Numbered from the stretch's first letter, positions 9,948 through 63,998 are shown. The stretch is 64,000 bases of DNA from a candidate division WOR-1 bacterium RIFOXYB2_FULL_42_35 (GCA_001771545.1 MEUC01000005.1:2379-66378), one strand, 5' to 3'. Notes: generated by a model from the letters alone, not told the origin. Numbers and translations: made by a program.

Positions 9948-10298
9948 TTATAGACTCCCTCTAGCTTTATTCGCAATCGAACTTAAAATCTTCATTAATT
10001 CATGTGATTCCTGGATCAAGTCATCCAAATTATCTTCTTTATAAATAATCTGCGCTTTTTTAATCAATCTCAACCAATATCTGGTCTCCCTAGCTTCTTT
10101 CCTTGAGATAATTACCTTATTTATAAAATCTCTCTTGGTCGCCGCTCCATCAGCCTCTTCCATGTTAGCCCCAATCGAAGTGCCTGACCTAACCAACTGT
10201 CTAGCTAATACATTTCCAGACTGAGTTTTCGGCAACTTGTCCGCAAACTTAAGTATGCGAACTCCAAATTCCAAGGTTCTATCTTGTATGTCCACCGC
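9948..10298 (-). CDS. Four-helix-bundle protein (23S rRNA intervening-sequence protein / Avd-like family, PF05635)
   Basis: ARQLVRSGTSIGANMEEADGAATKRDFINKVIISRKEARETRYWLRLI matches the family signature (RSAxSIxxNIAEG...KdFi...iArgS..E..ywL). The likely start is a GTG with GAGGAGG RBS 8 nt upstream (the track ORF starts at a TTG at 10322). Confidence 0.65.
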   Translation of the reverse strand, partial: AVDIQDRTLEFGVRILKFADKLPKTQSGNVLARQLVRSGTSIGANMEEADGAATKRDFINKVIISRKEARETRYWLRLIKKAQIIYKEDNLDDLIQESHELMKILSSIANKARGSL

Positions 10299-10316
10299 GA
10301 CCACCTCCTCAACCAA

Positions 10317-10366
10317 TGTCAAATTTCAAATGACAAATGTCAAATGAATGTGTGCCTCCGGCACAT
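10317..10366. repeat. Repeat R2: core GACAAATGTCAAATGAATGTGT plus GC hairpin GTGCC-TCC-GGCAC
   Basis: Same core-then-hairpin layout as R1. It forms an inverted-repeat pair with R3 across the TIR gene. Confidence 0.7.
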
Positions 10367-10369
10367 TAT

Positions 10370-11053: not shown

Positions 11054-11063
11054 ACAATAGTAC

Positions 11064-11113
11064 GTCGCGCAGCGACACATTCATTTGACATTTTTAATTT
11101 GACATTTGTCATT
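11064..11113. repeat. Repeat R3 (inverted relative to R1/R2): GC hairpin GTCGC-GCA-GCGAC plus core ACATTCATTTGACATTTTTAATTTGACATTTGTCATT
   Basis: Its 32-nt core differs from R4 at one position. It abuts the carA stop codon and overlaps the 5' end of the TIR gene. Confidence 0.7.
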
Positions 11114-37104: not shown

Positions 37105-38348
37105 TACTTTACCGCCTCTTTAATGATATTTTCGAAAGATGTCACACAAGCTTCACGAGAGAAGTACTTTTCTGCGGCTTGCCGCCCATTCTGACCCATC
37201 TCGTCCCGCAACTTTTTATCATTATATAGTTTCAAGACCGCTTGCGCAAGCTCAGCCGGGTTTTCGGCCTCAACACTTAGGCCACAGTTATGTTCTGCCA
37301 CAATCTTAACTGCATCACTTTTACAAGAGACGCTGACAATTGCAGGAAGTCCTGCAGCCATAATGCTTAAAAGCTTACTAGGCACAACAGGAGTAGCCAG
37401 GGCTTTACGAAGTGTTACCAAAGAAACATCTGAACTATGAAGAATTAAAGGATAAAGGTTATGTGGTTGGGTTGGTACAAAAAGGACATTTGTAAGACCA
37501 AGTTCTTTAACTTGAGCCTCCAAAGCTGGCTTCTTGACCCCATCACCGACTAAAACAAATTTGATATTATCGGTCCTGAGTCTTGTGTCCTGAATCTTGT
37601 GTCTTTGCAAAATCTCCGCCGCTCTAACAACAACATCAAGTCCCTGAGCAAACCCCATTACCCCGGCAAAAGAGACCACAAACTTGTCTTTTAAATCATA
37701 TTTACGGCTGAAATCATTATCTCTGGCTCCAGGTTGGATAGCTAAAGTATTAACCCAGTTATGAGCAATCTTTACCCGCTCCTCTTTGGCCCCTTTAGTG
37801 ACGACATAATCCTTATTGCCGGCAGAATGAACCGCAACATAATCGGACTTTTTATAAACGAACTTTTCCATAATTTGAGAAAGCTTAATCAATGATTTAT
37901 TATTTAACAAACCCAGATCAATCACAGTTTGCGGATAAAGATCCTGGATATTACTAATCAAGGGGCTTCTTTTCATCCTTCCCAGCCAATACCCGGCAAG
38001 TCCCAAAGTAAGTGGCGGCGAATAGATCAGAATGGCATCCACTTTTTTCACCCTTAAGCCGCCAAGAAAGAAAATTATGGCCAAAAGAAAATGCTCAACC
38101 CCACGAAAGAAAGGACTTGTCCTCACTAAAGGTGGGGTTTGATAACGAAAAACATTTATGCCGGCAATTGTTTCCCTGTTAGGCAAAGCCTTAAGATCCG
38201 TCCCTTCGGCAACATTATAAAGAGGCTTGCGAGTCACCACAGAAACTTTATGGCCCCGTCTAACCAGTGATTCTGCCAATTCAAAAAAAAGGGTGGCACA
38301 GGATTTTGTTTCCGGAGGGAAAGCCTCAGATAAAATAAGTAGATGCAT
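37104..38348 (-). CDS. Glycosyltransferase family 4
   Basis: GT-B fold with C-terminal GT1-type motif. The probable start is MHLLILSEAFPP (the track ORF extends to 38393). Confidence 0.7.
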   Translation of the reverse strand: MHLLILSEAFPPETKSCATLFFELAESLVRRGHKVSVVTRKPLYNVAEGTDLKALPNRETIAGINVFRYQTPPLVRTSPFFRGVEHFLLAIIFFLGGLRVKKVDAILIYSPPLTLGLAGYWLGRMKRSPLISNIQDLYPQTVIDLGLLNNKSLIKLSQIMEKFVYKKSDYVAVHSAGNKDYVVTKGAKEERVKIAHNWVNTLAIQPGARDNDFSRKYDLKDKFVVSFAGVMGFAQGLDVVVRAAEILQRHKIQDTRLRTDNIKFVLVGDGVKKPALEAQVKELGLTNVLFVPTQPHNLYPLILHSSDVSLVTLRKALATPVVPSKLLSIMAAGLPAIVSVSCKSDAVKIVAEHNCGLSVEAENPAELAQAVLKLYNDKKLRDEMGQNGRQAAEKYFSREACVTSFENIIKEAVK

Positions 38349-40542
38349 TGATTGTTTGTGGGACTCCTGTTTTGATTGATTCAATAATGGCAAAGGTAGT
38401 TAAAGTTGTATAAATATGGTCTTTAAGAGGCACAGCTTCCCGACTACTCTTAACCGCAGCAAAAAAAGCTTCAAACTCTCCTTCGTAACCACGATCAAGG
38501 TTAAAGGATTTTTTCTTTTGACCCCTACCATCTTTAGCAAAAAATAATGATTTAAAGTTATCAATTACACAAACTGACTTGCCGGAAAACACTTCAATTC
38601 TTTCTCTGGGAAGAAGTTTATCGCCTTGAGAAGCGTAAAGGATTGTCGCAATCGAACCATTGTGCATTTTAAGCGTAATAACTAAATTGTCTTCCCCTTT
38701 TTCTGTGGCAGCCTGAGCAAAAACACTTTCGGGCAATGAGCCGGATAAAGCTTGAACCAAATCAACAAAGTGACAAACCTCGCCAACAACCCTGCCCCCA
38801 CCCTCCGCTGCATCGTGAACCCAACTTTCAGCCGGGACAAACCCAGCATTAACTCGACAATTGATAACCAGGTTTGAACCAGAACCGAGCAATTCTTTGG
38901 CCTTCAAGGTCAAGGGAGCAAAACGACGGTTAAAACCTACCATCAGGAGCCGTGGATCGGGGTTCGCCGTGCCTGCCGGCAGGCAGGTGGTTCGTGAATA
39001 GATATCGATTATTGATTTAAGTTCTGAATCATTCATGCACAAAGGTTTTTCTACAAAGACGTGCTTACCAGCCTTAAGGGAATCAATCACCATCTGGGCA
39101 TGAAGATTATGCCTAGTTGCAATTAAAATCGTATTAATATTTGGATCTTTTAATAATTCCTGATAGTCGGCCACACAATACTCAAACCCATATTTTTTAC
39201 CTGTGTGACGACCCTTAAAACCTTCCGCATCTGCAAGCCCAACCAATTTAATATTTTTGAACTTTTTTAGAATGGGGAGCATGCTAGTGTTGGCGTGGAG
39301 GCCTGCGCCGATCAGCCCTATTTTGACCTGCTCCAACTGTCTGCTGTCTGCTGTCTGCTTTCTACTATCTAATAAGCTTATCTTCTTCGACCCAGGACCC
39401 ATGACCCCAGACCCAAGACCATCCCCATATTCTAACAAAACCCCAAGATACGGCACTCCCCCCTTTAAAATCATCTCATACCCGGCTAGAGCTTCTGCCA
39501 ACTTAAAGCGATGGCTAATAAGCTTTTCTAGTTCAACCTTTCCTTCAGCTACCAAATCAAGGAAACAAGCCATATTGCGTTGAGTGGTCCAACGAACATA
39601 AGGCAAAGGATAATCTTGCCCTTTATTTTCATAAAGGGGATCAAATTTACCGGGGCCGGTGGCGCGAGAAACAATGACACTTAATTCTTTTTTGAAGAAG
39701 TCTTGTCTGGGCACATCCAAAGAAACCATACCACAAGCAACAATACGGCCCTTATCCCGGGAAATTTCCGCAGCCATTTCAATCGGTTTATTATCTTGAG
39801 AGCCTGCCATAATAATAACGGCATCAGCCCCAACTCCGCCAGTAAAGTCAGCTACAACTTGATTAATATCATCTCTACCAATTAAGGCAACTTGATCAAC
39901 TCCAAATTCCCTGGCCATTTTTAGTTTGGCCTCGGAGATATCAACCCCAATAACTTTACAGCCAAAGGCTTTAAGCATCTGAACCGTTAACTGTCCCAAC
40001 AGCCCTAACCCAAGAACAACGACATTTTCACCAAAAGTTAAGTTGGCAACCCGAATAGCATTCAAAGCAATCGAACCTAAACCGACAAACGAGGCTTCTT
40101 CAAAAGAAACCCCTTGAGGAATTTTGACCAGCATATTTTTTGGCACATAACTTAGTTCGGAATGAGTGGCAAACCCATCGCCAAAACAGGCGATTCTATC
40201 GCCAACTTTGACACCATAAATCCCCTCTCCAACCTCTCTAACCAGACCGGCTGAACTGTAGCCAAGAGTAACAGGAGTATCTAAACGGCTCATGACAGCT
40301 TTATAAGTATCTAATAAACCGTCAACTTTAATTTTGTTGATAACCTGTTTAACCAGGTCAGGACGAGCCAGGACTTTTCCCAAATAACCTTTTTGAGCCA
40401 GACTGATCATTAGCTTCTCCGTGCCAACGCTGACAAGGGAATTTTTTGTTTCCAACAAAACCCCACCAGAACGCAAAAGAGGATCCGGAACTTCCACTAA
40501 CTGAAGCTCCCCTGATTTATAGTTTTGGATTATCTGTTTCAT
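38326..40542 (-). CDS. Bifunctional oxidoreductase: N-terminal Zn-dependent alcohol dehydrogenase (MDR) domain fused to C-terminal Gfo/Idh/MocA domain
   Basis: N-terminal MDR fold (GDRIACFGDG..., VVLGLGLLGQL). C-terminal IGLIGAGLHAN...EKPLC Gfo/Idh/MocA Rossmann domain. They are joined by a low-complexity repeat-encoded linker. Confidence 0.7.
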   Translation of the reverse strand: MKQIIQNYKSGELQLVEVPDPLLRSGGVLLETKNSLVSVGTEKLMISLAQKGYLGKVLARPDLVKQVINKIKVDGLLDTYKAVMSRLDTPVTLGYSSAGLVREVGEGIYGVKVGDRIACFGDGFATHSELSYVPKNMLVKIPQGVSFEEASFVGLGSIALNAIRVANLTFGENVVVLGLGLLGQLTVQMLKAFGCKVIGVDISEAKLKMAREFGVDQVALIGRDDINQVVADFTGGVGADAVIIMAGSQDNKPIEMAAEISRDKGRIVACGMVSLDVPRQDFFKKELSVIVSRATGPGKFDPLYENKGQDYPLPYVRWTTQRNMACFLDLVAEGKVELEKLISHRFKLAEALAGYEMILKGGVPYLGVLLEYGDGLGSGVMGPGSKKISLLDSRKQTADSRQLEQVKIGLIGAGLHANTSMLPILKKFKNIKLVGLADAEGFKGRHTGKKYGFEYCVADYQELLKDPNINTILIATRHNLHAQMVIDSLKAGKHVFVEKPLCMNDSELKSIIDIYSRTTCLPAGTANPDPRLLMVGFNRRFAPLTLKAKELLGSGSNLVINCRVNAGFVPAESWVHDAAEGGGRVVGEVCHFVDLVQALSGSLPESVFAQAATEKGEDNLVITLKMHNGSIATILYASQGDKLLPRERIEVFSGKSVCVIDNFKSLFFAKDGRGQKKKSFNLDRGYEGEFEAFFAAVKSSREAVPLKDHIYTTLTTFAIIESIKTGVPQTINASTYFI

Positions 40543-41380
40543 GTTTTTGACAATACTGATCTATTATAGCAGAATAATTCTCCAAAAAGTTATTGATGCT
40601 GTTAGTATCCTCAATAAAATTAACCAAATCGAGAAAAAGATTGTTTTTTTTGATTTTTCCGGCCTTGAGATGAATCTCTTTTAGCATTTGCGACCATGAC
40701 ATCCCGCTATATTTAGTATCGGCAAAGAGGAGCTTCAAGCTTTTGGCGCCAGGTATAATGTCCTTACCCATATACCAAACCAGGTCATACATATCGCGGC
40801 CTTTAAAATCAATTTCCTTGGCTTTACCTTTGTAAAACAAACGGGTCAGAAAAGCGTGAACTTTGCCGGCCATTAAATCCGCCAATGAATATCTTTTTAG
40901 AAAATAAGTCCTGCCCCCCTTTTCCACTAAGGCAGTTTCCAACACAGCCTCCGGCAAGTTAACCTGGGCAATTTCTACTTTTAGCAAAAGTGTAAATGAT
41001 TGTTGAAAATCAAGGCCCAGTTGCTTTAAGAAAGGGAACTTGAGATAAATTTTATTATTTTGGCCCTTAAGCGCAAAATCAATCTCCTGGTATTTAAGGG
41101 TTTGCCGAAACATATTTTTAAGATCCCCGGCTATCTTTTGATGGTCTAATTTTACCGCACAATCAAAATCAAGGTCTTCGGACAAACGCGGCAGGTTAAA
41201 GCAAAACCGCAAGCATGTCCCGCCGGTAAAAATCAGCTTATGGTTAAGCTCTTTATTGCCATAGATATATTCTAAAACGATATTCTGGAGATGCTCCTTA
41301 ATCAAATTGATTATATAACCGGTTCTCACCTTTTTCTGCTTAGCTTCACTAACAATAGCTTTTAATTGCTCAAAAAGCAT
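40517..41380 (-). CDS. Nucleotidyltransferase AbiEii/AbiGii toxin family protein (DUF1814)
   Basis: LIFTGGTCLRFCFNLPRLSEDLDFD matches the AbiEii motif (KGGTAL...RfSeDiDf). Confidence 0.65.
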   Translation of the reverse strand: MLFEQLKAIVSEAKQKKVRTGYIINLIKEHLQNIVLEYIYGNKELNHKLIFTGGTCLRFCFNLPRLSEDLDFDCAVKLDHQKIAGDLKNMFRQTLKYQEIDFALKGQNNKIYLKFPFLKQLGLDFQQSFTLLLKVEIAQVNLPEAVLETALVEKGGRTYFLKRYSLADLMAGKVHAFLTRLFYKGKAKEIDFKGRDMYDLVWYMGKDIIPGAKSLKLLFADTKYSGMSWSQMLKEIHLKAGKIKKNNLFLDLVNFIEDTNSINNFLENYSAIIDQYCQKHETDNPKL

Positions 41381-42005
41381 GCTTGCTCCTCAAGGCCTGA
41401 TAAATCCGACGCATTTTTTCACTTCGGGCAATAGCCAAATAATCTTCAAATTCCCGCCAATCGGCCGAGGAAAAACCCTCCAAATTTAATCTTAGTTCGG
41501 CCACGGTTTTTGCGTTGGCATGTTTAATGGTTCGTTTGGCAAAATAAAGGTAATCAAATAAAGCCTTACTCTTGGAAGCGATATCATAGTTTTTGCCTTC
41601 AAATTGCGCCCGGCTAAAACCGCAAAACAACTGTCGCTTGATTTTGGCATAACTGAAATTAGCAATTTTAGAGCTGTAGTTTTTGGTTGCCCTGCCGGTA
41701 ATTGAAGCGACACCAAAAACAGCTTCGGATAAAACACCGTATCGGGCCAAAACGGTCTCTTTGCTGACATAAGAAGGTTGGTCCAAGAGAGAAGCAAGAT
41801 AGTTGAGATACTCATCTTTGTTGGCACAATTTTGCCAATATTCTTCCGGCACATAAAAGCCTCTCTTGAGCTTAATCAGTTTACCGGCTTTTAACCAGTT
41901 TTTGACGTTCTGGTCAAAAGAAGCCGGTTTAATATCAGGGAATAAAAGGGCAAGATTATCTTTTCTCACGTAAGGCAGTTTTATTATTTGCTCTGAAATG
42001 CTCAT
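41370..42005 (-). CDS. AbiEi-family antitoxin-like protein (type IV TA)
   Basis: N-terminal wHTH ending KAGKLIKLKRGFYV (AbiEi L.R.G.Y motif). Encoded immediately upstream of AbiEii with an overlapping stop/start. Confidence 0.55.
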   Translation of the reverse strand: MSISEQIIKLPYVRKDNLALLFPDIKPASFDQNVKNWLKAGKLIKLKRGFYVPEEYWQNCANKDEYLNYLASLLDQPSYVSKETVLARYGVLSEAVFGVASITGRATKNYSSKIANFSYAKIKRQLFCGFSRAQFEGKNYDIASKSKALFDYLYFAKRTIKHANAKTVAELRLNLEGFSSADWREFEDYLAIARSEKMRRIYQALRSKHAF

Positions 42006-42047
42006 TTGTTTTGGTTAGGGTAACAAGGCTTGTACTTATCTGGTACA

Positions 42048-42076
42048 AATATACATCTTAATCAGGCAATTGTCAA
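42048..42076 (-). promoter_or_regulatory. Sigma70-type promoter for abiEi (TTGACA-17-TATATT)
   Basis: Minus-strand reading: TTGACA attgcctgattaagatg TATATT, about 40 nt upstream of the ATG. Confidence 0.45.
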
Positions 42077-42089
42077 ATTTTAGGTCTAC

Positions 42090-42126
42090 TCACGTACCGG
42101 CTTTTTGCGAAAGGTGTACATTATCT
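42090..42126 (-). pseudogene. Fragment A: decayed copy of the DUF362 gene 3' end (encodes IMYTFRKKPVRE*)
   Basis: CTTTTTGCGAAAGGTGTACATTATC is homologous to 44240..44265 inside the DUF362 gene. It follows the DUF2283 stop in the same frame. Confidence 0.6.
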
Positions 42127-42355
42127 ATTTTTTCGCTTTTACTTTCTGACGCATGAGTTCAAAGGTCATATGGTAAAATTGCGATTTGGGTTCAGGCAGG
42201 TTCTTAGAGGCATCGAGAATTTCAATGCCAAGAACTTTGCCTTTTTTATCGTAATCAAAAATTATGCCCTCCTTGACCTCATCACTTTCATAATAACGGC
42301 TATCACCAAACCTTATATACATTGCATCACTTTTTTCGTCGTAATTAACCTTCAT
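42125..42355 (-). CDS. DUF2283-family protein (putative antitoxin-like partner)
   Basis: MKVNYDEKSDAMYIRFGD...GKVLGIEIL matches the DUF2283 pattern. Confidence 0.6.
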   Translation of the reverse strand: MKVNYDEKSDAMYIRFGDSRYYESDEVKEGIIFDYDKKGKVLGIEILDASKNLPEPKSQFYHMTFELMRQKVKAKK

Positions 42356-42614
42356 TATAGACCTCCCTTAAATATTTTTTAATTTTACTTGTCCTATAAG
42401 CTGTAATCACGATTTTGGTCGTATTTTCAATTGCATAAACGACCCGATATAAAAATCTTTTACCACCTTTTGATAAAATTTTCTGGGCGACCTGACGGCC
42501 CGGAATGCCAGTCGTTAAAACTTGGTGGGGTTTATTTATTACACGCTCTACCTCAGCTTTAGCAATGCCGCGCTCCGTTAATTGTTTCTCCGCATGGGGA
42601 TGATAAACTAACAT
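42345..42614 (-). CDS. DUF4258-family protein (putative toxin-like partner)
   Basis: HAEKQLTERGI...RVVY...KIVITAYR matches the DUF4258 pattern. Overlaps the DUF2283 gene start. Extended -10 (TGATATAAT) 9 nt upstream of the ATG suggests a leaderless transcript. Confidence 0.6.
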   Translation of the reverse strand: MLVYHPHAEKQLTERGIAKAEVERVINKPHQVLTTGIPGRQVAQKILSKGGKRFLYRVVYAIENTTKIVITAYRTSKIKKYLREVYNEG

Positions 42615-42671
42615 CTTATTGGCATTATATCATGAATTCAACCAGATGGGCTCTAAACTTTAAGCTCCCTC

Positions 42672-42755
42672 GACAGGTTTTTTGCGGAATGTATACATAA
42701 TCTTATGCAGCAAATCGGCAAACATTGACTCGTAAAAAAGTGGTTGATGGCTGGA
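42672..42755 (-). pseudogene. Fragment B: decayed copy of the DUF362 gene 3' end (encodes ...SHQPLFYESMFADLLHKIMYTFRKKPVEGA*)
   Basis: An ~85-nt block >85% identical to 44229..44314; in-frame with the upstream HepT-like stop. Confidence 0.7.
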
Positions 42756-43223
42756 TTAAAGTTTTGACAAAAAGTTAATAAAAGCCTTAAGCTGAAGGTC
42801 AACCTCTTTATAAAGAGCCGGTAAATTCTCGGCTAAATTCTGGCAGCGCTGCCATTTTAATTCAAAACCATAAATATGTCTAAAAAGGTGTCTAAAGCTT
42901 AAATATTCGTTCAAGTTTTCCCCTAATTCAACTGATAAAACTGCGGGCCGGCGGTTAGGCACATTAGCCAACATGCGCCGCAAAATTTGAGTATGCCAGC
43001 CCTCGCCCTCCGGCAGGCCACCATCAACGGCATAGGCAATCCTTTCAAAGATCTTTTCCAGTCCGGTATAAAAGTCATGCAAAATACTGCCTGCCGCCCT
43101 AATTAGGGTGGTATCCGGCTGATCCTTGATGCTTTTTAGCGCCAATTGCATTTCATCAACCAAGCGGCCAAGGTTCTTATTTTCTAAACTGATATCTGTT
43201 ATCAAGCCGGCAAATTTAGCCAT
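42756..43223 (-). CDS. HEPN-fold toxin-like protein (HepT / nucleotidyltransferase-substrate-binding HI0074-like)
   Basis: R-x4-H-x-Y motif (FRHLFRHIYGF). Overlaps the upstream MNT gene by 8 nt. Confidence 0.5.
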   Translation of the reverse strand: MAKFAGLITDISLENKNLGRLVDEMQLALKSIKDQPDTTLIRAAGSILHDFYTGLEKIFERIAYAVDGGLPEGEGWHTQILRRMLANVPNRRPAVLSVELGENLNEYLSFRHLFRHIYGFELKWQRCQNLAENLPALYKEVDLQLKAFINFLSKL

Positions 43224-43581
43224 AAATTAATTGCCCTTTTTTTTGGATTAAATCTTTTAACTTAGGGGCCGCGTCTTCCAAGGGAACCAGATCAACACTT
43301 ACTTTACCGGCAAAAAGCCGGGATATCTTACTTAAAGCAGAAATATATTCTTGGGGTTGTATCCCCTCTACAGCCAAATCAAGGTCAGAATGTTTATGGA
43401 AAAGCTCACCATCAATTATTGATCCGAACAAAAAAACCTTTTTAGCGCCAAATTGCCTGCCCAGCATCTGCGCTGCTTTGGCAGCAGAAAGTTTTAGGGA
43501 TTTAATCAGTAACTGTTTAGCTTGATATTCCTTTTCAAATTGTTTTTTCCAGAATTTCTGGTAATTTCTTAGACTTGCCAT
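43216..43581 (-). CDS. Minimal nucleotidyltransferase (MntA-like antitoxin)
   Basis: LFGSIIDGELFHKHSDLDLAV matches the GS-x9-13-DxD MNT motif. Confidence 0.65.
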   Translation of the reverse strand: MASLRNYQKFWKKQFEKEYQAKQLLIKSLKLSAAKAAQMLGRQFGAKKVFLFGSIIDGELFHKHSDLDLAVEGIQPQEYISALSKISRLFAGKVSVDLVPLEDAAPKLKDLIQKKGQLIYG

Positions 43582-43590
43582 AATGGTTAA

Positions 43591-43619
43591 ATTGTATCAG
43601 ATGTTTTAGGGGATAACAA
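43591..43619 (-). promoter_or_regulatory. Sigma70-type promoter for mntA-hepT (TTGTTA-17-TACAAT)
   Basis: Minus-strand reading: TTGTTA tcccctaaaacatctga TACAAT ttaaccatt ATG (near-leaderless). Confidence 0.5.
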
Positions 43620-43686
43620 ATTAAATTTACTTTGTGAATCGTGAACGGTGAGGCGTAACAGCCCACATTAATTCGGCATTATTCTT

Positions 43687-43762
43687 CCACAGGTTTTTTA
43701 CGGAAGGTGTACATGATTTTGTGGAGCAGAGCTGCAAGCATCGATTAGCAAAAAAGATAAGC
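43687..43762 (-). pseudogene. Fragment C: decayed copy of the DUF362 gene 3' end (encodes MLAALLHKIMYTFRKKPVEE*)
   Basis: CCACAGGTTTTTTACGGAAGGTGTACATGATTTTGTGGAGCAG... is ~70% identical to the D copy. It follows the MNT109 stop directly. Confidence 0.65.
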
Positions 43763-43763
43763 A

Positions 43764-44093
43764 TCAAACCAGGCGGATACCTTTTTGGATAATTTGCCTG
43801 ACCAGGCTGACTTCTTTTTTCTTTTTAGCAAATTCCTGTGGCGTATAACATAAAAAGTCAATATCAGGCAATTCTTTATCTGACCAGGTTTTTAGCTGTT
43901 TGGCCACTTCCGCCCCTCTTTTGATAAACCTGTATTTATCAAACTCCTTGGAAACAAGTGCAATATCAAGATCGCTATTTTCATTGGGCTGGCCATAAGC
44001 GTATGAACCCCACAACCAAATTTCCTGCGGCTTAAAAATTTTTTTTAATTGTTCCAAATATCTGGCCAAAAAAGTTTCCACAGTTATATTCAT
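43764..44093 (-). CDS. Orphan minimal nucleotidyltransferase (MNT) translationally coupled to the DUF362 gene
   Basis: LWGSYAYGQPNENSDLDIALVS MNT motif. Its ATG overlaps the DUF362 stop (AAATGA). No HEPN partner follows it, only fragment C. Confidence 0.6.
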   Translation of the reverse strand: MNITVETFLARYLEQLKKIFKPQEIWLWGSYAYGQPNENSDLDIALVSKEFDKYRFIKRGAEVAKQLKTWSDKELPDIDFLCYTPQEFAKKKKEVSLVRQIIQKGIRLV

Positions 44094-45193
44094 TTTACCG
44101 TCTCACCCGTTATAAGTTTTTTAATTATTTCTGCCTTACTTAATCCTTCTCTAGCATCTTCCGGACTACAATTTTCGTATGGCATAACATCAGAAATATC
44201 AGGATAACGTAAAACCTGATAATATTTTTCCACAGGTTTTTTGCGAAAGGTGTACATAATCTTATGCAACAGGTCAGCAAACATTGATTCATAAAAAAAG
44301 TGGTTGATCGCCGGGTGAACCCAAGCAAAAAGCGCTAAATAATTCCAGTGATCGCGCTTAAGATAAAATTTATTGGAAACAAACTTGTGATAATCCTGAT
44401 TCATTTCAATCTCTGCTTCCTTTGGCACCAAGCCATTCCTATAAGCCAAGTAATAATGTCTGATCTTCTTAAGATCAACACCCATCATCTTGGCGGTGAT
44501 TAAGTCAGCCGCCTCAAAACTATCTGAGGCAATCAGCCAGCCTAATTTGAAGGAATCTCCCACCATCGGACCGCTGCGAGTTAAACCATAAGTACCGTCA
44601 ATTATCGTGTACTTGTTCTTGATGGCTTGGTTGATAGCAAAAATCGCTTCGTTAAAAACAGGATGATAGCGCAAGCGCATCACATTGGGCACACAACCCC
44701 ACTGATTTTTGTAAGAAAGAGAAATCTGCGTCATAGCATGCACTTTGGGGACCGGCAAAGTAATAAAAGCGTCAATCTCATGCAGTAAAATCTTGGGCAT
44801 TTCAATTTTAAAATCACGACCAAATTTATGGACAGTTAAAAACTCAAAAGGAAGCTGAGAAAGATTAACAACCCTGATGCCATATTTCTTTTCCAAATCA
44901 TAGAGCCCATAATCGTGAAAGGCATCTTTGACTTCGTAGGAATTGTACCCTCCGTCCGATTCCCCCACTATCACCTTACAGCCATAATCTCTTAAAATTT
45001 TTATTAAAGCTTCCAAGAGTTGCGGTGTGGTAGTAACTCCAGGCTTAAACTTAGGATGGCCTAAATTGGGCTTTAAAAAAACGCGATACCCAGGTTTCAG
45101 CTTGTTTTTTAAACCGATAAAGTCAAGAGCTTGGCCCAATAACTCTTCAATTTGATTAACCCTCAAATCATAAATATAAAGACGAGCCGTCAT
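44090..45193 (-). CDS. DUF362-domain protein (polysaccharide-locus enzyme of unknown function); its 3' region is the source of repeats A-C
   Basis: RVFLKPNLGHPKF...TTTPQLLEALIKILRDYG...VIVGESDG is a DUF362-type N-terminus. The C-terminal ...FYESMFADLLHKIMYTFRKKPVE (44229..44314) is followed by a 45 aa tail. Confidence 0.55.
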   Translation of the reverse strand: MTARLYIYDLRVNQIEELLGQALDFIGLKNKLKPGYRVFLKPNLGHPKFKPGVTTTPQLLEALIKILRDYGCKVIVGESDGGYNSYEVKDAFHDYGLYDLEKKYGIRVVNLSQLPFEFLTVHKFGRDFKIEMPKILLHEIDAFITLPVPKVHAMTQISLSYKNQWGCVPNVMRLRYHPVFNEAIFAINQAIKNKYTIIDGTYGLTRSGPMVGDSFKLGWLIASDSFEAADLITAKMMGVDLKKIRHYYLAYRNGLVPKEAEIEMNQDYHKFVSNKFYLKRDHWNYLALFAWVHPAINHFFYESMFADLLHKIMYTFRKKPVEKYYQVLRYPDISDVMPYENCSPEDAREGLSKAEIIKKLITGETVK

Positions 45194-45245
45194 TCTTCGG
45201 TCTGCTCCTTAATTGCTTGTGTTGCACCTATGGCTTTTGATCATT

Positions 45246-46394
45246 TTATTGAAAAACAAGTTTTGTAAACAGATCCACAAAAGCTTGCTCGTATTTTTGA
45301 GCAGTAAAGCCTTGTTTGATTTTGTTAATGTTTTCCTCAGCCATATTAGCGCACAATAAGTGGTCGGAAAAAAGTTCTTTTATTGCTTGAACCAATTTTT
45401 CCGGCGCTTGAGCCGGCACAAAAAAACCATTAACACGATCAAGAACAACATCAGGAATCCCACCCTGCATAGTTGTGATAATTGGCAAACCAGCAGCCAT
45501 GGCTTCCAAAATAGCTATCGGCAACCCCTCATAAGGGTAATAAGTAGGAAAGACAAAAAGGTCACTATCCCAAAGCAATTGTTTTTTTTCTGTTCCTTTT
45601 ACAAATCCAACAAATTGCACATTAGTAGTAAGGTTATTTGCCTTAACATAGTTCTCAGCCGCATTTTTCTCTAATAAGCTTGGCCAACTACCAGCAAAAA
45701 TAAATTCAAGAGGAAAGCTTTGTTGCTTTAAAATTGCAGCTGCTCGCAATATATCAAAAAAACCTTTAGAGACAAGCAAGTTGTTAAGGAATAAAACCTT
45801 AAAGTTGCTTCTGCCTCCAAATTTAATGCTGGTAAGCTTAGCCTCAACCTCAGACTCTGTAGGCAATAATTCATTAACTACAAAATTAGTAACAACCACA
45901 ATTTTCTCTTCTGCAACTAACCCCCTAAAAACATCCCGTAGGGAACTGGTTAAAACTATAGCCAGGTCAAGCTGAGACAAGGTCATTTTGATCCACAGCT
46001 TTAATGGCCAACCAGAATTTTCATAGAGCACCCTAAAATACCCGCCATGCAGATGTATAACACATTTTTTGCGACAAATCTTAGCTAGTAAAATAAACAA
46101 GCTATCCCGAAGAAATCCTAGCCTAGTTTGCGCGATTGCCAAGTAGACTATTTTAGGTCTAAATACTATCATCTGCCAGCCTAAAGCGAAAAAAGATAAA
46201 ATATCCTTAAGGAATTTAATTGGTCTAAACTTGCCAATATTTAAATCCGTTATCAACCTTGCTCCACTAGTATTAATATTTTTGACACAAAAAGCCCTGT
46301 TTAAAACCTTGGAATTCGCCAATTGTTCTAAGGCAATAGAAGTGCCATGATATGGAGGAGGAAAAGAACCAATTAAAACAACTCTATTTTTCAT
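45246..46394 (-). CDS. Glycosyltransferase family 4
   Basis: EGLPIAILEAMAAGLPIITT GT1-type C-terminal motif. Confidence 0.75.
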   Translation of the reverse strand: MKNRVVLIGSFPPPYHGTSIALEQLANSKVLNRAFCVKNINTSGARLITDLNIGKFRPIKFLKDILSFFALGWQMIVFRPKIVYLAIAQTRLGFLRDSLFILLAKICRKKCVIHLHGGYFRVLYENSGWPLKLWIKMTLSQLDLAIVLTSSLRDVFRGLVAEEKIVVVTNFVVNELLPTESEVEAKLTSIKFGGRSNFKVLFLNNLLVSKGFFDILRAAAILKQQSFPLEFIFAGSWPSLLEKNAAENYVKANNLTTNVQFVGFVKGTEKKQLLWDSDLFVFPTYYPYEGLPIAILEAMAAGLPIITTMQGGIPDVVLDRVNGFFVPAQAPEKLVQAIKELFSDHLLCANMAEENINKIKQGFTAQKYEQAFVDLFTKLVFQ

Positions 46395-55871: not shown

Positions 55872-57841
55872 AACAAGCTCTCTTGCTGCTCTGATAGTTT
55901 GGGAACATTAGCCTGATCAACATGAACCCTTAGCCAATATTCCAAAACGACAAAAGACCAAATATCTATCTCGGAAACAAAATAATTCCCTTTTAAAAAC
56001 TGCTTGTGTATTTTTTTCATCCACTTATAATCAAAGAGGCCTCTTTTCTTTATCGTCTCCTCAGAAAACACGTCATCGACAAAAGATTTCAACTCGTGCT
56101 TTATCCATTTTTCAAATGGGATACCAAAAGATGCCGACGGTTTCTGCGCAAGTTCTCGAGGCAAATAAGAATCCATGGCTCTTCTTAATAAAAACTTATC
56201 CTTTTTTAGATTATTTGGTAGACATAAACACATCCGAATCATGTCCAGACTTAAAAAGGGTAAGCTCACCTCTGCTTCAAAGTGAGAAGAAACGCTATAA
56301 AATGAGGGGAGCTGCTGATTACTTTGGTAAGTCTTTAAAGTAAGATAGGTGTTCTGAGTTGAAGTCTGTCCTAAGTTCAAGCCAGCAACCATATCTCTAT
56401 ACCCCTTAGCAACTACATCTGGATCAAAACTGGCGGGGGGATCACTAAAAATCTTGTTGAGATGTTTTTCATCTATTGTTGATCCTTTCCACTTAAACAA
56501 TCCCAATTTATTGGTTAGGTAAGTATAAAAAAACAGGACCCCCTTCCGCTTCCTTGTTAAAGAGAAAGCACATAACTGGGCAAAACGATCCCTCAGAAAG
56601 GAAAGAAAACACAACCTGACTGATTTCGGCACACGCTGTGAAAAAGCAATTGATTTATCAACTCGATCAAATAGTTGCCAAGCAGAATTTAACCCAAAGA
56701 TAGAGTCCGCACCTTCACCACAAAAATACTGACTAATATTGTATTTTTTACCAAGAGAAGCAACCAAATACATCATATAACCACTATTAGCTACAGGCAG
56801 GTCAAGTCCCTTTAGGTAATCAATAAAAACATCTGAAAGTTTCTCTGCACTGAATAAAATCTCATGGTGATTTATTTTTTTATTTTCCGCCATTAATCGG
56901 CCAAAATATCGTGCCGGATCATTATCATCAAAATAAATAGTAAAACTATGCAAAGGATTTGGCGATATTTCCTTTAACAATGACGCTAAAACACACGAAT
57001 CAACACCCCCACTAAGCAAAAGCCCTAACGGCCGGCTATCGTCATCAATATTATCTTGAAGATTTTTTTTCAAGATATCCAACATTTTTAGGCTCAGAGT
57101 TTCTACTTTCTCTTCCTCAACTATCTGAGCAAACAATAAACGTAGATCCCAAAAGGAATATACTCTTGTCACCCCAGAAGCATATTTAAAAACTTGGGCA
57201 GGAAGAAGGCTGCGTATTCCTTTTATAGGGGTCAGGGGTTGTTCAAAGGCTTTCATAAGCAAATATGAATATATTGCTTCCACATCCAACACTTTATCTA
57301 CCAAATTAGTTCTTAATATCAGCTTCAAACTATTAGCTAAACAGATTACCTCTCGATCACAAAAATAATAAATAGCACACTGTCCAATTTTATCTCTGGC
57401 AGCAAAAATAACCTCGCGATGCAAAAGCACAAAGCTGAACACACCCTCAAAATGTTCCACACATTTCTCCCCATAGACCCGATAAGCATCAATAATAAGC
57501 TCTCCATCACAACTCGCACGAGAAATGACTCCTTTGGCCGCTAACTGTTGCTTTAGCTTCTCTTTACTGTAAATGCGTGCATGATAGAAAACCATATATT
57601 GCTCACTACTATCTGAAGAAAAAAAATAATTAGATTGGTCGGCAAAAGCCAGTAGCTCTTTATTACCATCAAAATCAATCCTTTTAATTAAAGCCATCCC
57701 CATATTGTCAGCAACAAAAGGCACCACTTTGGGTTTTAAGCAAATCAGATAGCTCATCTTTATCTTTCTATATGCCCTCGCCAACCATCGGCTGGCACGA
57801 AACGAAGATTTTCTAGCTGTTGATATCCCCTGTTTTCCCAT
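55868..57841 (-). CDS. Asparagine synthase-family amidotransferase-like protein (no evident N-terminal Cys nucleophile)
   Basis: LLSGGVDSCVLASL SGGxDS PP-loop. The N-terminal region lacks an MCG start. Confidence 0.7.
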   Translation of the reverse strand: MGKQGISTARKSSFRASRWLARAYRKIKMSYLICLKPKVVPFVADNMGMALIKRIDFDGNKELLAFADQSNYFFSSDSSEQYMVFYHARIYSKEKLKQQLAAKGVISRASCDGELIIDAYRVYGEKCVEHFEGVFSFVLLHREVIFAARDKIGQCAIYYFCDREVICLANSLKLILRTNLVDKVLDVEAIYSYLLMKAFEQPLTPIKGIRSLLPAQVFKYASGVTRVYSFWDLRLLFAQIVEEEKVETLSLKMLDILKKNLQDNIDDDSRPLGLLLSGGVDSCVLASLLKEISPNPLHSFTIYFDDNDPARYFGRLMAENKKINHHEILFSAEKLSDVFIDYLKGLDLPVANSGYMMYLVASLGKKYNISQYFCGEGADSIFGLNSAWQLFDRVDKSIAFSQRVPKSVRLCFLSFLRDRFAQLCAFSLTRKRKGVLFFYTYLTNKLGLFKWKGSTIDEKHLNKIFSDPPASFDPDVVAKGYRDMVAGLNLGQTSTQNTYLTLKTYQSNQQLPSFYSVSSHFEAEVSLPFLSLDMIRMCLCLPNNLKKDKFLLRRAMDSYLPRELAQKPSASFGIPFEKWIKHELKSFVDDVFSEETIKKRGLFDYKWMKKIHKQFLKGNYFVSEIDIWSFVVLEYWLRVHVDQANVPKLSEQQESLL

Positions 57842-59244
57842 TCTTTAACATTAGAAACAATATCAACATTTTCCAACCAAGAAATTTCTTTCACAAAATA
57901 ATGACTATCAAGGGCATTTCTGATTGTTGGAATCTTGTCGAAATCAAACCCCATTATAAAGCTGGCAACAGCATCTAAAATAGCTGCGTTCCCTCCCCCC
58001 AACAATAAACCTGCTTTGCGAGGCACAGGTTCCAACGGACCATTCCCTTCGCCAGCCCAGATACCATCAATAATAGACAGATATTTTCTCTGGGGGTTTT
58101 CTTTTATTTCCCCTTTATTATCAGAAAATCTTAGAATCAAATTCAAATCCAGCGTAGTTCTCCAAATCGTATCATTGCCATACCAAGCCCCATCACGGTT
58201 AATTGTAAAAGCAAAAGATTTCTTCTTAAATCTGTTTTTAGTTTTTCTGATAAAAAATCGAAAAGGGACATATAAGTATTTAAGCAAAAATTGACCAAAT
58301 TTAACCCTGCTAAACAGATCTATTAAATATTGACCAAGTTTATAATCAACTCCTAACTCATCCCCAAACATATCCCCTCCATTTGCAGGAGAACCTATCC
58401 GATGATGAGGCAACCCTCTCTTCTCATTAGTTATGCCTACCATATTTTTAAGGCCCAAAGTAATCCCTGCCTTACAATGAGTTTTTAATTTGGACACACT
58501 AATAATCACATCACTTTTTAACAATGTCTTAGGGATCGAATAGATATGCTTCCCAGGCTGATGAAACTTTGGCACAAAGTTTTCATAAACCCCAGCCGTG
58601 CTTCTATATCTATTACAATGCTTATCGACAGGAGCTAAAAAACTTTTCTTTTTTAAATCTACCAACTGATAACCCAAAAAATCCCCCTGTTGCTTTCTTG
58701 AAGCAATAATTACATCGTTTTCATCTCTGAGCGCCACGAGGTCCCTAAAATCTACAGTTTCAAATTCAATTCCCGTATTATTTGAATAAAAATCTCTAAT
58801 CTTATCCAAGCCAGTAAACTCAATTAACTTAGCAAAATCCACTTCCTTGATTGGGGAATCAGCAATAATTATCCGCCCTCTCCCCTTTAAGGCAATATAA
58901 ACATAATCAACAATTGCCCTAATTAAAGATCCATGAGCAATTGTCGAAAACAAACCAATCTCACCCAAGGAATGTTCAAAAACAACCAAATTTGGTTTTA
59001 TTAACACTTGCTGTCCAGGTTGAATTAATGATCCTAAGGGGTTCCAGCCTTGTTGTCCATAATTTTCAATATCCAATTGTAACTTAGCCAAAAGTAGCCG
59101 AAACTCTTCATAACAAGAATTGTCCTGGTAAGCCCCGACATTCTTGAACGGGTACTCAGGAAACTCTTTTCCAGGATGAAAAGGCGGAACCTTAGCATAA
59201 TCCCCATCACATTTAATAATAGCAACCCTGTTTTCTATCGACAT
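57760..59244 (-). CDS. DUF362-domain protein (second copy)
   Basis: QVLIKPNLV...HGSLIRAIVDYV...IIIADS, a DUF362-type core; 494 aa. Confidence 0.55.
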   Translation of the reverse strand: MSIENRVAIIKCDGDYAKVPPFHPGKEFPEYPFKNVGAYQDNSCYEEFRLLLAKLQLDIENYGQQGWNPLGSLIQPGQQVLIKPNLVVFEHSLGEIGLFSTIAHGSLIRAIVDYVYIALKGRGRIIIADSPIKEVDFAKLIEFTGLDKIRDFYSNNTGIEFETVDFRDLVALRDENDVIIASRKQQGDFLGYQLVDLKKKSFLAPVDKHCNRYRSTAGVYENFVPKFHQPGKHIYSIPKTLLKSDVIISVSKLKTHCKAGITLGLKNMVGITNEKRGLPHHRIGSPANGGDMFGDELGVDYKLGQYLIDLFSRVKFGQFLLKYLYVPFRFFIRKTKNRFKKKSFAFTINRDGAWYGNDTIWRTTLDLNLILRFSDNKGEIKENPQRKYLSIIDGIWAGEGNGPLEPVPRKAGLLLGGGNAAILDAVASFIMGFDFDKIPTIRNALDSHYFVKEISWLENVDIVSNVKEWENRGYQQLENLRFVPADGWRGHIER

Positions 59245-61260: not shown

Positions 61261-62730
61261 CTATGCCCCTTTCCCATTCTTTCGAAACATCACAATTAAG
61301 TTAAGCCCAATCTGCTCAGCTCTTTTAATAAAAACAACAACCAGGGGGGAAATAATTAAACTAAAAAACAATAGCTTTGAAGCAATTTGACTCCCCAAGG
61401 TAAGAAAAACCAGCTGTGGCAAAAGTAAATTATAAAAACCGACAACCATTATTACCACGTAAATCAAAGGAAAATAGATTTGATAAAGATAAAACAGCGA
61501 ACCGGAAAAAGACTTTTTCAAATACCACAAAGTAAAACCAGCATTAATGACTTTATAAGTAATAAAAGCCACGGCCGTCCCTATCGCCACACCAACTATA
61601 CCCCAACCCATTAGTATTAATAGCCAGCTAACCAACAAATTAATGGTGATCGCCAAAACCTGAATCGAGAGGTAAATAAACTGGCGGTTAATGGTGTTAA
61701 AGATATTAGCAGTCATCACACAAACCCCAATCATTAATATCAGGGCCGAAGAAACACCATTTTGATACTGCGGCAAAATAAGCTTAACTATATCACCTAA
61801 AAACATCAGTCCACCTCCCAACATAACAGCCATAATAATTGATAATAAAAGTTGTGGCTGAAGTGCATGTCGCTCCAAAGACTCGAAGGAATTATGTTTA
61901 CCATATTGCTCGTTTAACCGTGGGTAGATCACATTGCCAATGGAGGAAGGGATCATTTGCATAAAACCAACTACCATCAAACCAAGGCCATAATAGCCCA
62001 ATTGGGTTAAATCTAAAAATTTTAAAATCAAAACACGATCAACAGTAGTCAAAATTAAAAAGGCAAAACCAACCAACATTATAGGGAAACCAACCTTAAT
62101 CAAACCCCAAATTTGTTTAAGGGAATATTCCCAGTGAAATCTAAGCTTGGAAAAAAACAAGGTTAAACAAACCATAATTACCTGAAAACACAACAAAGCC
62201 CACAAATGGCCGTAGATTTGAAACTTGATCACTAAAATAATATCAATAACAAAAAATATTATTGATCCGGTAATCGTTAATATAGAGACTAACACAAAGC
62301 GCTTATAGGATTCCAAGACACGAAACAAAAGAGCATAAATCATACCAACAAAAACAGTCATACTAGATATCCTTAGGGCAAAAGCTAGCAATGTATCATG
62401 AGCGAAAAAAGAATAAATAAAAATCCCCAGAGAAACCAATAATGGCAAGGTAAACATTTGGCTAAAGGCCAGGTTTTTAATCTGTTCAGCTTTCTTTTCC
62501 TCTCCCTTGCCTATATACAAAGGAATATCCCTTGACATGCCATTTTGCGTACCCAGAGTAGAAAACTGATGATACTGTTGGATTAATTCTACTGCCTTCC
62601 AAAAACCAAAATTAGTGGGGCCCAAAAAACGGGCAACAATAATTCCCCGAACAAAACTAAAAACAAAAGAAAAAATCGAGCTAAAATAAACACTCAACGC
62701 ATCAATAACTGTAGCTTTTTTTTCACTCAT
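61261..62730 (-). CDS. Polysaccharide flippase (Wzx, MOP superfamily)
   Basis: 489 aa with ~12-14 TM helices; Wzx-like N-terminus (FSFVRGIIVARFLGPTNFG). Confidence 0.7.
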   Translation of the reverse strand: MSEKKATVIDALSVYFSSIFSFVFSFVRGIIVARFLGPTNFGFWKAVELIQQYHQFSTLGTQNGMSRDIPLYIGKGEEKKAEQIKNLAFSQMFTLPLLVSLGIFIYSFFAHDTLLAFALRISSMTVFVGMIYALLFRVLESYKRFVLVSILTITGSIIFFVIDIILVIKFQIYGHLWALLCFQVIMVCLTLFFSKLRFHWEYSLKQIWGLIKVGFPIMLVGFAFLILTTVDRVLILKFLDLTQLGYYGLGLMVVGFMQMIPSSIGNVIYPRLNEQYGKHNSFESLERHALQPQLLLSIIMAVMLGGGLMFLGDIVKLILPQYQNGVSSALILMIGVCVMTANIFNTINRQFIYLSIQVLAITINLLVSWLLILMGWGIVGVAIGTAVAFITYKVINAGFTLWYLKKSFSGSLFYLYQIYFPLIYVVIMVVGFYNLLLPQLVFLTLGSQIASKLLFFSLIISPLVVVFIKRAEQIGLNLIVMFRKNGKGA

Positions 62731-63998
62731 TTTTTAAGGTTCCCAACTGGCCTAAGAATATATTTAGAGATAATTCTCTGCTCTTTATCGTTTTCTACAA
62801 ATGTCTCATCCAATTCCTGGGCCGAGTACTGCAAACGCAGAAAATACTGGTCCCCACCCATAGGAACATAATAAACAGAAGGAATTAAGGCTGACTCGGA
62901 CTGATCGTGACTGATCAACAACTGCTTCTGTCTATCACCAACAACAACCAAGCCCTGGGTTGCGCCTAAACCATGTTTAGCTGATATTAGAGCAGATAAG
63001 CTTTGCGCATGATTGATTAGTTGATCTTCAAGCGGAAAAACTTCTAGTTCATTTCCGCCATTATGAGTAGCAAAGAAAACACTCTCTCGCTCAAAACCAG
63101 TAGGCAAGAAAGTTAAATTAAGGGGATGAATAATTCTTCGTTTTCTTCCTTGCAACAAAACTAACTCTGTATTAATTTTCAACTCTTCAGTATCTGCACA
63201 ATATTGATATTCTTTCTTAATTATTCCCCCATTAAAATCATGAGAAAAGCTGATTCGGAGCACTTGATTAGTTTCCTGAACAATAAGAGGCTGGCAACAA
63301 ACCAAATCAGTAATCTTATGCTGGCCTTCTTTCTCAATAATCAAATGGCCAGAGAAGAAATCAGCCCCAAAGGAGATATCATCATAATATCCATGGGGCA
63401 AGGTTCCTAATAATGGTTTTGAGAAAACATTCTTAAACCAAAGTTTATCGATTGCTAACCCCTTTAATTTATTAAAAATACATTTAATTGTTTTCGATTC
63501 AACAATCAACCAACGGTCATCCTCATGATATTGAAAAGCAGCCTTGTCCATCTGTTTAACAGACAGAATTTGTGTCGCCAAAGATAAAGGCCTTGGCTTA
63601 ACTACTTTTTTGTAGCAACAATCTAACCTCTCTTGATACTTCTGCCATCTTTTTTCCCCAATATGCGTCCTAAAATCACTTGACCATAAATAGCAAAGTT
63701 CTTGCCAGTCTTGGGCGGTAGTATTTTTCAGCCGTTCTAATGTTGCATAGATCTCAAAACATTTGGTATTAATTTCCAAATCTGCTCGCCCTGTTAATGC
63801 CCAGCGATTGATATTGTATTTTTCCTGTTTTTTAACCGGGATAGGCTGCTGGGCAGATTCAAGTCGGATTACATTGCCAGCAAATTCATGTCCCAAAGAA
63901 AACAAAATTTGCGATGGTAAAACCAAGCTAAAATTACTATCAGCTCCCAACTTTTCAAACAAAGCAAAAATACGCTGCCATTCTTTTTTCGTTCCCAA
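62727..63998 (-). CDS. Hypothetical protein (the gene's 5' part lies beyond the window end)
   Basis: Open frame runs to the window edge. No recognised motif. First gene of the minus-strand polysaccharide gene series within the window. Confidence 0.4.
   Translation of the reverse strand: MGTKKEWQRIFALFEKLGADSNFSLVLPSQILFSLGHEFAGNVIRLESAQQPIPVKKQEKYNINRWALTGRADLEINTKCFEIYATLERLKNTTAQDWQELCYLWSSDFRTHIGEKRWQKYQERLDCCYKKVVKPRPLSLATQILSVKQMDKAAFQYHEDDRWLIVESKTIKCIFNKLKGLAIDKLWFKNVFSKPLLGTLPHGYYDDISFGADFFSGHLIIEKEGQHKITDLVCCQPLIVQETNQVLRISFSHDFNGGIIKKEYQYCADTEELKINTELVLLQGRKRRIIHPLNLTFLPTGFERESVFFATHNGGNELEVFPLEDQLINHAQSLSALISAKHGLGATQGLVVVGDRQKQLLISHDQSESALIPSVYYVPMGGDQYFLRLQYSAQELDETFVENDKEQRIISKYILRPVGNLKK

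Follow-up and report, generated by a model that had tools for sequence, protein, structure and literature searches.

In a stretch of 64,000 nt of the candidate division WOR-1 bacterium RIFOXYB2_FULL_42_35 (GCA_001771545.1, MEUC01000005.1:2379-66378; hereafter the window), four toxin–antitoxin (TA)-type cassettes stand in tandem between a DUF362 gene and the ADH-Gfo fusion gene of an operon of sugar and surface-polysaccharide genes, and each of the first three cassettes is followed by a displaced copy of the DUF362 3' end. These copies, together with the end that is still part of the gene, are the ends of four distinct functional DUF362 alleles. A first-pass annotation of the window had read the pattern as the scar of serial insertion at the DUF362 3' end, and this is supported by the presence of an empty site in eight related genomes. 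With moderate confidence, we favour serial recombinational import from related donors, in which each event would have combined the arrival of a donor DUF362 end and a TA cassette with the displacement of the resident end. The locus is a variant of known recombinational scars, and not a new integron-like system or recombination machine.

All genes of the array region are on the minus strand (Table 1). A 26-nt core of the copies, ATGTACACCTTTCGCAAAAAACCTGT, has four matches at up to three mismatches, all on the minus strand, against none in 100 shuffles, and longer alignments recover all four copies, named A to D with D lying within the DUF362 gene itself, over the intervals of Table 1 (approximate for B and C), with identities of 77% for C to B (70 nt), 86% for B to D and 90% for A over 31 nt. 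The four copies that the first-pass annotation had described for the 3' coding end of DUF362 are thus present where chance predicts none, and their coordinates place them between consecutive cassettes, as it had stated; its naming of the cassettes as MNT, MntA/HepT-like_2, DUF4258/DUF2283 and AbiEi/AbiEii agrees with the Pfam and NCBIfam matches. Nor is the array an assembly artefact, a possibility that had been raised: the locus is present in 24 contigs, which belong to independent assemblies (ENA, JGI and NCBI) of several groundwater samples from Rifle, and the 10 contigs retrieved for comparison are 99.8–100% identical to the window over the overlap that each has with the 8-kb array region (38326–46394). 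Versions with fewer cassettes do not occur among these 10 contigs.

Translated in the DUF362 frame, copy D reads HPAINHFFYESMFADLLHKIMYTFRKKPVE, remnant C reads SMLAALLHKIMYTFRKKPVEE between two stops, remnant B reads NPAINHFF, a 1-nt frameshift and then YESMFADLLHKIMYTFRKKPVEGA before its stop, and remnant A reads IMYTFRKKPVRE, again between two stops. The remnants had been described as progressively decayed, which does not hold: identity does not drop with distance from the gene, and the differences are almost all synonymous. The copies share 79–85% nucleotide identity with each other, about the same as with orthologues in other genomes. Between D and B, 11 of 69 nucleotides differ and every change is synonymous by codon comparison, while 11 changes placed at random (20,000 trials) give 8 non-synonymous codons on average, and zero in none of the trials. 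The 12 nucleotide differences between D and C correspond to 8 synonymous and 2 non-synonymous codons (P ~1e-4), and in the comparisons with A every difference is synonymous. Because drift in place would be mostly non-synonymous, this near-absence of non-synonymous change indicates that each copy diverged inside a working gene, and the codon test rules out the in-situ neutral decay of duplicates. All four copies are of the KKPV subtype, which otherwise occurs in L055, the closest relative, alone; for remnant A, copy D and L055 tie as the nearest nucleotide sequence (26/30). The 5' edges of the remnants differ, lying at roughly codons 294, 299 and 311, with lengths of ~39, 84 and 100 nt.

Retention of the remnants for a function of their own, such as that of a short translated peptide (MFADLLHKIMYTFRKKPVEGA and the like) or of a regulatory spacer, would fit both the in-frame ATG and stop present in each of them and the scarcity of non-synonymous change, but is very unlikely: A comprises just 11–12 codons, B is frameshifted, C has a stop in its upstream part, the peptide is without independent evidence, and the comparable remnant found in the L056/L057 lineage (see below) is visibly decayed, with an internal stop.

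Copies A, B and C carry natural gene ends, since orthologues stop at the same place. All of 43 DUF362 orthologues from the Margulisbacteria/Saganbacteria clade (61–85% identity, 304–337 aa) end in ...H(K/R/T)(I/L/V)MY(T/I/L)(F/I)RxxP(V/I), with the stop 1–11 (mostly 2–3) codons past the conserved proline; the possibility that orthologues lack this terminus can be set aside, as they carry it in the form ...LLHKIMYTFRK(K/R)P(V/I). The description of D as the 3' coding end of its gene is correct as regards the natural end seen in orthologues, but the segment is internal here owing to a fusion. Similarly, the statement that every copy stops just after PVE applies to A (PVRE and stop), B (PVEGA and stop) and C (PVEE and stop) but not to D, which has lost its own last codons and stop and continues as KYYQVLRYPD... 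for 45 more codons to 44090.

This 45-codon tail derives from a truncated HEPN gene, of which it is the C-terminal third. It matches positions 82–113 of the 117 of the Pfam HEPN profile (E 0.079), and a phmmer search against 1.84 billion representatives gave 7 hits, in which the full-length proteins P0244 (136 aa) and P0246 (132 aa), with HEPN E-values of 1e-26 to 1e-28, match the tail at residues 84–125. The stop of the fragment overlaps the MNT start (ATGA). The truncation and fusion explain the "orphan" MNT as the remainder of a HEPN–MNT pair, and, judged from sequence, cassette 1 is a decayed pair of this kind with MNT as the predicted antitoxin partner of the truncated HEPN. One deletion took the 5' two thirds of the HEPN gene, its promoter and the DUF362 stop, fusing both frames. 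A further protein, P0001, not located on any contig, is a DUF362::HEPN' variant that lacks 37 aa internally through an in-frame deletion and has N in place of K at the fusion point, which suggests that the fusion also exists in a second strain or sequence version. The window contains a second DUF362 paralogue in the same polysaccharide cluster (57760–59244, minus strand; 494 aa, with a domain match in its C-terminal half only), which is ruled out as the source of the copies as it has no nucleotide match to the repeat.

At the other end of the array, the first 26 nt of ADH-Gfo provide the last 8 AbiEii codons and the stop. AbiEii homologues have 280–290 aa and end shortly past a ...QYC(Q/N)... 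motif, so that the AbiEii protein is essentially complete here. A 62%-identical AbiEii homologue (L145, 5866–5873) likewise overlaps the start of the next gene (PNP_UDP_1) by 8 nt. Both outer junctions, DUF362::HEPN' and AbiEii into ADH-Gfo, are illegitimate, and the native intergenic DNA is gone.

The empty site that the first-pass annotation had proposed to look for is found in eight genomes of Margulisbacteria/WOR-1 (L003, L005, L055, L060, L062, L063, L067 and L068), where DUF362 is followed directly by ADH-Gfo after ~10–55 nt and the repeat is present in a single copy; the closest of these is L055, with 85% identity. In the window, 3.7 kb separate DUF362 codon 322 from the ADH-Gfo start codon. 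Other relatives have ordinary genes of glycan modification at the same junction without any remnant—SAM methyltransferases in L004/L064/L065, L007, L058 and L066, and a deacetylase-like gene in L006—and a TA gene is found at the junction in none of the related loci compared. When ~120 DUF362 loci were each searched with their own C-terminal peptide, a second copy of the DUF362 end was identified in just one other lineage, L056/L057. In L056 (9768–11383; the same in L057), DUF362 is followed by a polysaccharide deacetylase gene, a methyltransferase gene, the remnant INHAFYESLLSDLLLKIIYAFR-stop-RLI and an ATP-grasp gene instead of ADH-Gfo. Its cargo is not of TA type, so that the same scar can arise with non-addictive cargo. 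This scar is rare, and is not evidence for an element family targeting DUF362. The proposal of a dedicated hotspot for defence modules is not sustained, as the only other remnant flanks a deacetylase and a methyltransferase and relatives carry such genes at this junction.

The nearest homologues of the cassettes come from WOR-1/Margulisbacteria. Those of MntA/HepT (63–65% identity) are located in another WOR-1 genome, with a TPR gene on one side and metH on the other, and beside trpC in a third, and those of AbiE (58–63%) follow Glycos_transf_4 or DUF2079 genes; DUF362-like sequence was found beside neither the nearest MntA/HepT (L136–L144) nor the nearest AbiE (L145–L147) homologues. As cassette relatives elsewhere lack the unit, the repeat derives from the target, a cassette-borne site is ruled out, and the occurrence of the ~85-nt unit at loci unrelated to DUF362, which the first-pass annotation had named as a refutation, was not observed among these homologues. 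One weak C-terminus-like match beside an AbiEi homologue (L091) is due to chance, lying in an unrelated small helical ORF (open reading frame). The G+C content of the cassettes (0.38–0.40) is the same as that of the flanks.

Serial import would involve at least four separate horizontal insertions into one operon junction, every incoming segment coming from a related but distinct lineage and consisting of a donor DUF362 3' end and a self-contained cassette, from its own promoter to its last stop. On the upstream side, the segment would be joined to the recipient by ordinary homologous recombination, either in DUF362 itself or in the genes preceding it; the downstream join, inside the last 40–100 nt of the resident DUF362, may be illegitimate or may use a short DUF362 fragment already trailing the cassette, in which case general recombination would suffice and the spread and stacking of such units would be accounted for. 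Each event would provide a new functional gene end and shift the old one downstream as a remnant, and, because new units would be added beside the gene, the newest cassette would be the one nearest DUF362. Owing to TA addiction, recombinants that gain a cassette plausibly have an advantage over those in which one is replaced, as deletion of the resident module would lead to post-segregational killing. Later deletions would have trimmed the outer junctions, one giving DUF362::HEPN' with loss of the stop, a spacer and two thirds of HEPN, the other removing the AbiEii stop and native intergenic DNA.

This recombination route, the sequence of the events and the part played by addiction are inferred. 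In favour of the reading as a whole are the synonymous divergence of the alleles, the natural ends, the empty site, the illegitimate outer junctions, the variable remnant edges and the lack of a recombinase in the 64 kb, as well as the non-TA scar in L056/L057, the analogous gene-end cases in L136 and L146 (see below), the matching G+C content, the WOR-1 origin of the cassette homologues and the precedent of restriction–modification (RM) genes. Several points weigh against it. Neither a donor genome nor an intermediate with a single cassette was found, and the closest homologues of the cassettes are only 62–65% identical and at other loci; three cassettes end exactly at a stop codon beside a remnant, which is not what random illegitimate joining predicts; and the four known remnants all start in the last 100 nt of a 1-kb gene, which hints at a gene-end constraint. 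The absence of a recombinase is a result for the 64-kb window, and the pattern is not uniform, the L146 remnant having only 18 nt and the L136 core being perfectly identical.

The architecture of the locus, an intact gene and then cassettes alternating with 3'-end remnants, would also fit site-specific accretion, in which a recombinase encoded elsewhere (on an integrative conjugative element (ICE), a phage or the chromosome) uses the DUF362 3' end as attB and small non-autonomous elements, each with a replacement DUF362 end, integrate serially in tandem. Selection would keep such element-borne ends synonymous, the empty site has a single copy, cassettes abut remnants precisely, remnants cluster in the last 100 nt, and the perfect 29-nt repeat of L136 could be an att core. 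However, no recombinase or transposase was detected among the window ORFs of at least 100 aa that were scanned or had precomputed Pfam hits (a few, e.g. 6693–9875 and 62727–63998, fell outside the scan), in line with the first-pass annotation, which had seen no integrase. The 5' edges vary by ~60 nt, and no exact core is common to the four copies, the longest pairwise exact runs being of 8–20 nt. The D junction is an in-frame gene fusion and not a clean att site. The ~120 other DUF362 loci show no scar of an integrative element, and their only remnant flanks housekeeping-type glycan genes. The DUF362-end motif is absent from 2.9 million viral contigs in two degenerate-pattern scans, and the idea of a phage or integrative element bearing a mimic of the DUF362 end was rejected. 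Site-specific accretion is thus unlikely.

Well-known systems of this type are e14 and phage 21 at icd, and the accretion of ICEs and cis-mobilizable elements (CIMEs) at gene 3' ends such as fda in Streptococcus thermophilus; they are integrase-dependent, have a fixed att core, and supply a substitute 3' end while the displaced native end remains downstream. The DUF362 array resembles both in that its gene stays intact through a substitute 3' end, in its displaced end downstream and in its tandem alternation, and, as in ICE/CIME accretion, related genomes have a single-copy empty site. It differs in its lack of an integrase in the window and of a fixed core, in the variable edges of its remnants and in its units of 0.5–1.6 kb, and no element family recurs at DUF362 in the ~120 loci, the L056/L057 cargo being non-mobile. 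In the minimal mobile elements and homology-facilitated illegitimate recombination of transformable bacteria, cassettes (TA, RM) are exchanged between conserved genes by general recombination. The route proposed here would likewise combine one homologous anchor with one non-homologous junction, although such exchanges usually give clean replacements or deletions in the recipient, whereas here the end of the anchor is duplicated three times.

Equally unlikely is in-situ insertion accompanied by a long duplication of the target, followed by homologous replacement of the functional DUF362 by divergent alleles, older alleles being frozen in the remnants. The features of the RM precedent (PMC2853133), namely no mobility genes, variable repeats of 30–100 nt and alignment with an empty site, are all in its favour, and glycan loci recombine often, which fits the variable gene content of the junction in relatives. 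It requires about twice as many events (three insertions and three allele replacements), though, there is no near-identical pair of copies such as a recent duplication would give, and the long target duplication is itself without a known mechanism.

The insertion of RM genes with long target duplication is the closest precedent for the locus. Such RM gene units are inserted, mostly in naturally competent species and without an integrase, with a long (30–500 bp) and variable target duplication (PMC2853133; PMC3874152), a process whose mechanism is unexplained (Nobusato et al. 2000; Furuta, Abe and Kobayashi 2010, PMC2853133). Common to both are small addictive modules that have no mobility gene and are bordered by direct repeats, tens to hundreds of bp in length, to which one copy in a genome with the empty site can be aligned, and some RM repeats also overlap gene 3' ends. 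The insert of the window is below 20 kb and without mobility genes, and its flanking repeats exceed 30 bp (39–100 nt) and align with the DUF362 3' end of L055 and others, as in the inserts of Furuta and colleagues. Unlike in the RM cases, the repeats are not near-identical (77–90%, with almost only synonymous differences) and hence come from different alleles, the cargo is of TA type, a single site bears a stack of four events, and it is a replacement gene end that forms the functional copy.

An integron-like array (a cluster of attC sites lacking an integron integrase, CALIN), with the ~85-nt unit acting as an attC recombined as folded single-stranded DNA, is extremely unlikely. The cassettes are small and share one orientation, the repeat has its start at the preceding ORF's stop codon, as is often the case for attC sites, and TA cassettes are common in chromosomal integrons. 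Against this, copies B, C and D fold no better than 200 shuffles on either strand (z −0.23 to +1.65), and GTTRRRY/RYYYAAC motifs occur at chance frequency (2–3 per strand in 4 kb versus ~3.9 expected) and not consistently at the boundaries; the folding and the motif positions effectively refute an attC reading. Moreover, the unit is a gene-derived coding sequence conserved at the amino-acid level, the cassettes have promoter-like sequences of their own, their nearest homologues elsewhere lack the unit, and no IntI integrase is present among the window ORFs scanned. The site-specific or integron-like mechanism proposed by the first-pass annotation is therefore not upheld, given the variable 5' edges, the lack of a shared core, fold or attC motif, and the lack of an integrase in the 64 kb.

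Repeats that copy part of a neighbouring gene also flank cassettes at other loci. In L136 (WOR-1 RIFCSPHIGHO2_01_FULL_53_15), a perfect 29-nt direct repeat, CCTCGTCATGGACGGCGCCATGGGGACGC, flanks a MntA/HepT cassette (5556–5584 and 6520–6548) and encodes the LVMDGAMGT motif of metH; its downstream copy lies inside the 5' coding region of an intact metH, and its upstream copy ends a divergent metH 5' remnant ORF (..SFLCLNDALNRRSLVMDGAMGT vs MSFLEEISKKILVMDGAMGT). A flanking repeat is present at this one of four other MntA/HepT-like_2 loci, the remaining three having none, which rules out flanking repeats as a general trait of these cassettes. In L146, the AbiE cassette follows a glycosyltransferase (Glycos_transf_4) gene ending in VKVYD and a stop, and is followed by ATCAAGGTTTACGACTAA, which encodes IKVYD and a stop (4291–4308 and 5865–5882); relative to the gene end, this copy begins with A instead of G (V>I), its changes TAT>TAC and GAT>GAC are synonymous, and one stop takes the place of another (TGA>TAA). 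The 18-nt repeat is suggestive at best of a gene-end copy, and could be due to chance. In L143 (1450–6821), an unrelated contig, four or more cassettes of TA type (MNT/HepT, MntA/HepT-like_2, DUF4258-like/DUF2283 and PIN) stand in tandem downstream of a UDP-glucose dehydrogenase gene, with repeats of the REP-like (GGTCACTGTGCCCGACCGG) and GACTCAGGACT types interspersed. It was rejected as a parallel case, its three 73-aa ORFs being mutually unrelated and its repeats being REP-like and not gene remnants.

Each cassette has 0.5–1.6 kb, and none encodes a mobility gene. HepT-like_2, Polbeta/NTP_transf_2 and AbiEii are above the Pfam cut-offs, while AbiEi and MntA are under that of NCBIfam; the paired, overlapping antitoxin and toxin genes fit, as predicted proteins, the models of type VII MntA/HepT and type IV AbiE. 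The AbiE promoter region, with its inverted repeat, is conserved in four genomes (the window and L145–L147), and the alignment of the AbiE cassettes of these four begins exactly at the −35 hexamer TTGACA, the other edge being the stop of AbiEii. This region upstream of AbiEi is probably the AbiEi autoregulatory operator, and the TA unit looks like a tightly delimited promoter-to-stop module. Based on these edges at the −35 hexamer, on the exact junctions of stop codons and remnants, and on the hints from L136 and L146, the promoter-to-stop TA cassettes of Margulisbacteria/WOR-1 might be a mobile class of their own, carrying a short neighbour-gene terminus as a portable attachment site, but this is distinctly unlikely. 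If true, a conserved gene end would be an integrase-free or trans-recombinase capture platform, integron-like in function yet mechanistically unrelated.

Table 1. Features of the array region in order of transcription; positions are those of the window.
Feature	Position	Strand	26-nt core match	Remarks
DUF362 ORF	44090..45193	minus		367 aa; Pfam DUF362 E 1.1e-37
Natural DUF362 part	residues 1-322	minus		ends ...KKPVE at 44228, then 45-codon foreign tail in frame
Copy D	44228..44314	minus	44232-44257	3'-terminal coding segment of the resident functional allele
HEPN' fragment	44093..44227	minus		C-terminal third of a PF05168 HEPN gene, joined in frame to DUF362
MNT nucleotidyltransferase (cassette 1)	43764..44093	minus		Pfam NTP_transf_2 7.8e-12; NCBIfam MntA 5e-9, below curated cut-off
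Remnant C	43679..43762	minus	43689-43714	displaced DUF362 3' end; starts directly after MNT stop; own stop 43679-43681
Spacer before MntA	43582..43678	minus		97 nt; promoter-like TTGTTA-17-TACAAT, TG-extended (consensus match only)
MntA + HepT-like_2 (cassette 2)	42756..43581	minus		MntA 43216-43581, Pfam Polbeta 1.3e-10; HepT-like_2 42756-43223, 8.3e-34
Remnant B	42660..42759	minus	42673-42698	displaced DUF362 3' end; overlaps HepT stop codon; own stop 42660-42662
DUF4258 + DUF2283 (cassette 3)	42125..42659	minus		45-nt spacer with extended -10-like TGATATAAT; genes 42614-42125: DUF4258 42345-42614, Pfam 1.6e-8; DUF2283 42125-42355, Pfam 1.7e-20
Remnant A	42086..42124	minus	42096-42121	displaced DUF362 3' end; directly after DUF2283 stop; own stop 42086-42088
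AbiE (cassette 4)	40517..42085	minus		80-nt promoter spacer, then genes 42005-40517: AbiEi 41370-42005, NCBIfam TAA_AbiEi 9.8e-10, below cut-off; AbiEii 40517-41380, Pfam AbiEii 9.6e-20
AbiE promoter region	~42025-42076	minus		TTGACA-17-TATATT, then inverted repeat TTGTAC-N7-GTACAA
ADH-Gfo fusion gene	38326..40542	minus		next gene after DUF362 in empty-site relatives

Elsewhere in the window, on the minus strand (9948–11080), a ThsB-like TIR-domain gene (10370–11080) and a 23S-rRNA-intervening-sequence-protein gene (9948–10322) lie between carA (11112–12248) and a 1060-aa ORF (6693–9875; not scanned) that is probably carB. The pair is another defence-type insertion in a housekeeping operon, with spacers too short for remnants.

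The movement of chromosomal TA modules without mobile-element machinery is poorly understood, and the DUF362 locus is an unusually readable record of it, in which four insertions form a stack, relatives have the empty site, and the synonymous divergence of the displaced ends indicates a different target allele for each event. It extends integrase-free insertion in the style of long target duplication from RM genes to TA cassettes, in a little-studied uncultured phylum. Addiction modules may accumulate in this way through counter-selection of recombinants that lose the resident module, and here they place abortive-infection and TA genes within a surface-polysaccharide operon, likely a phage-receptor locus.

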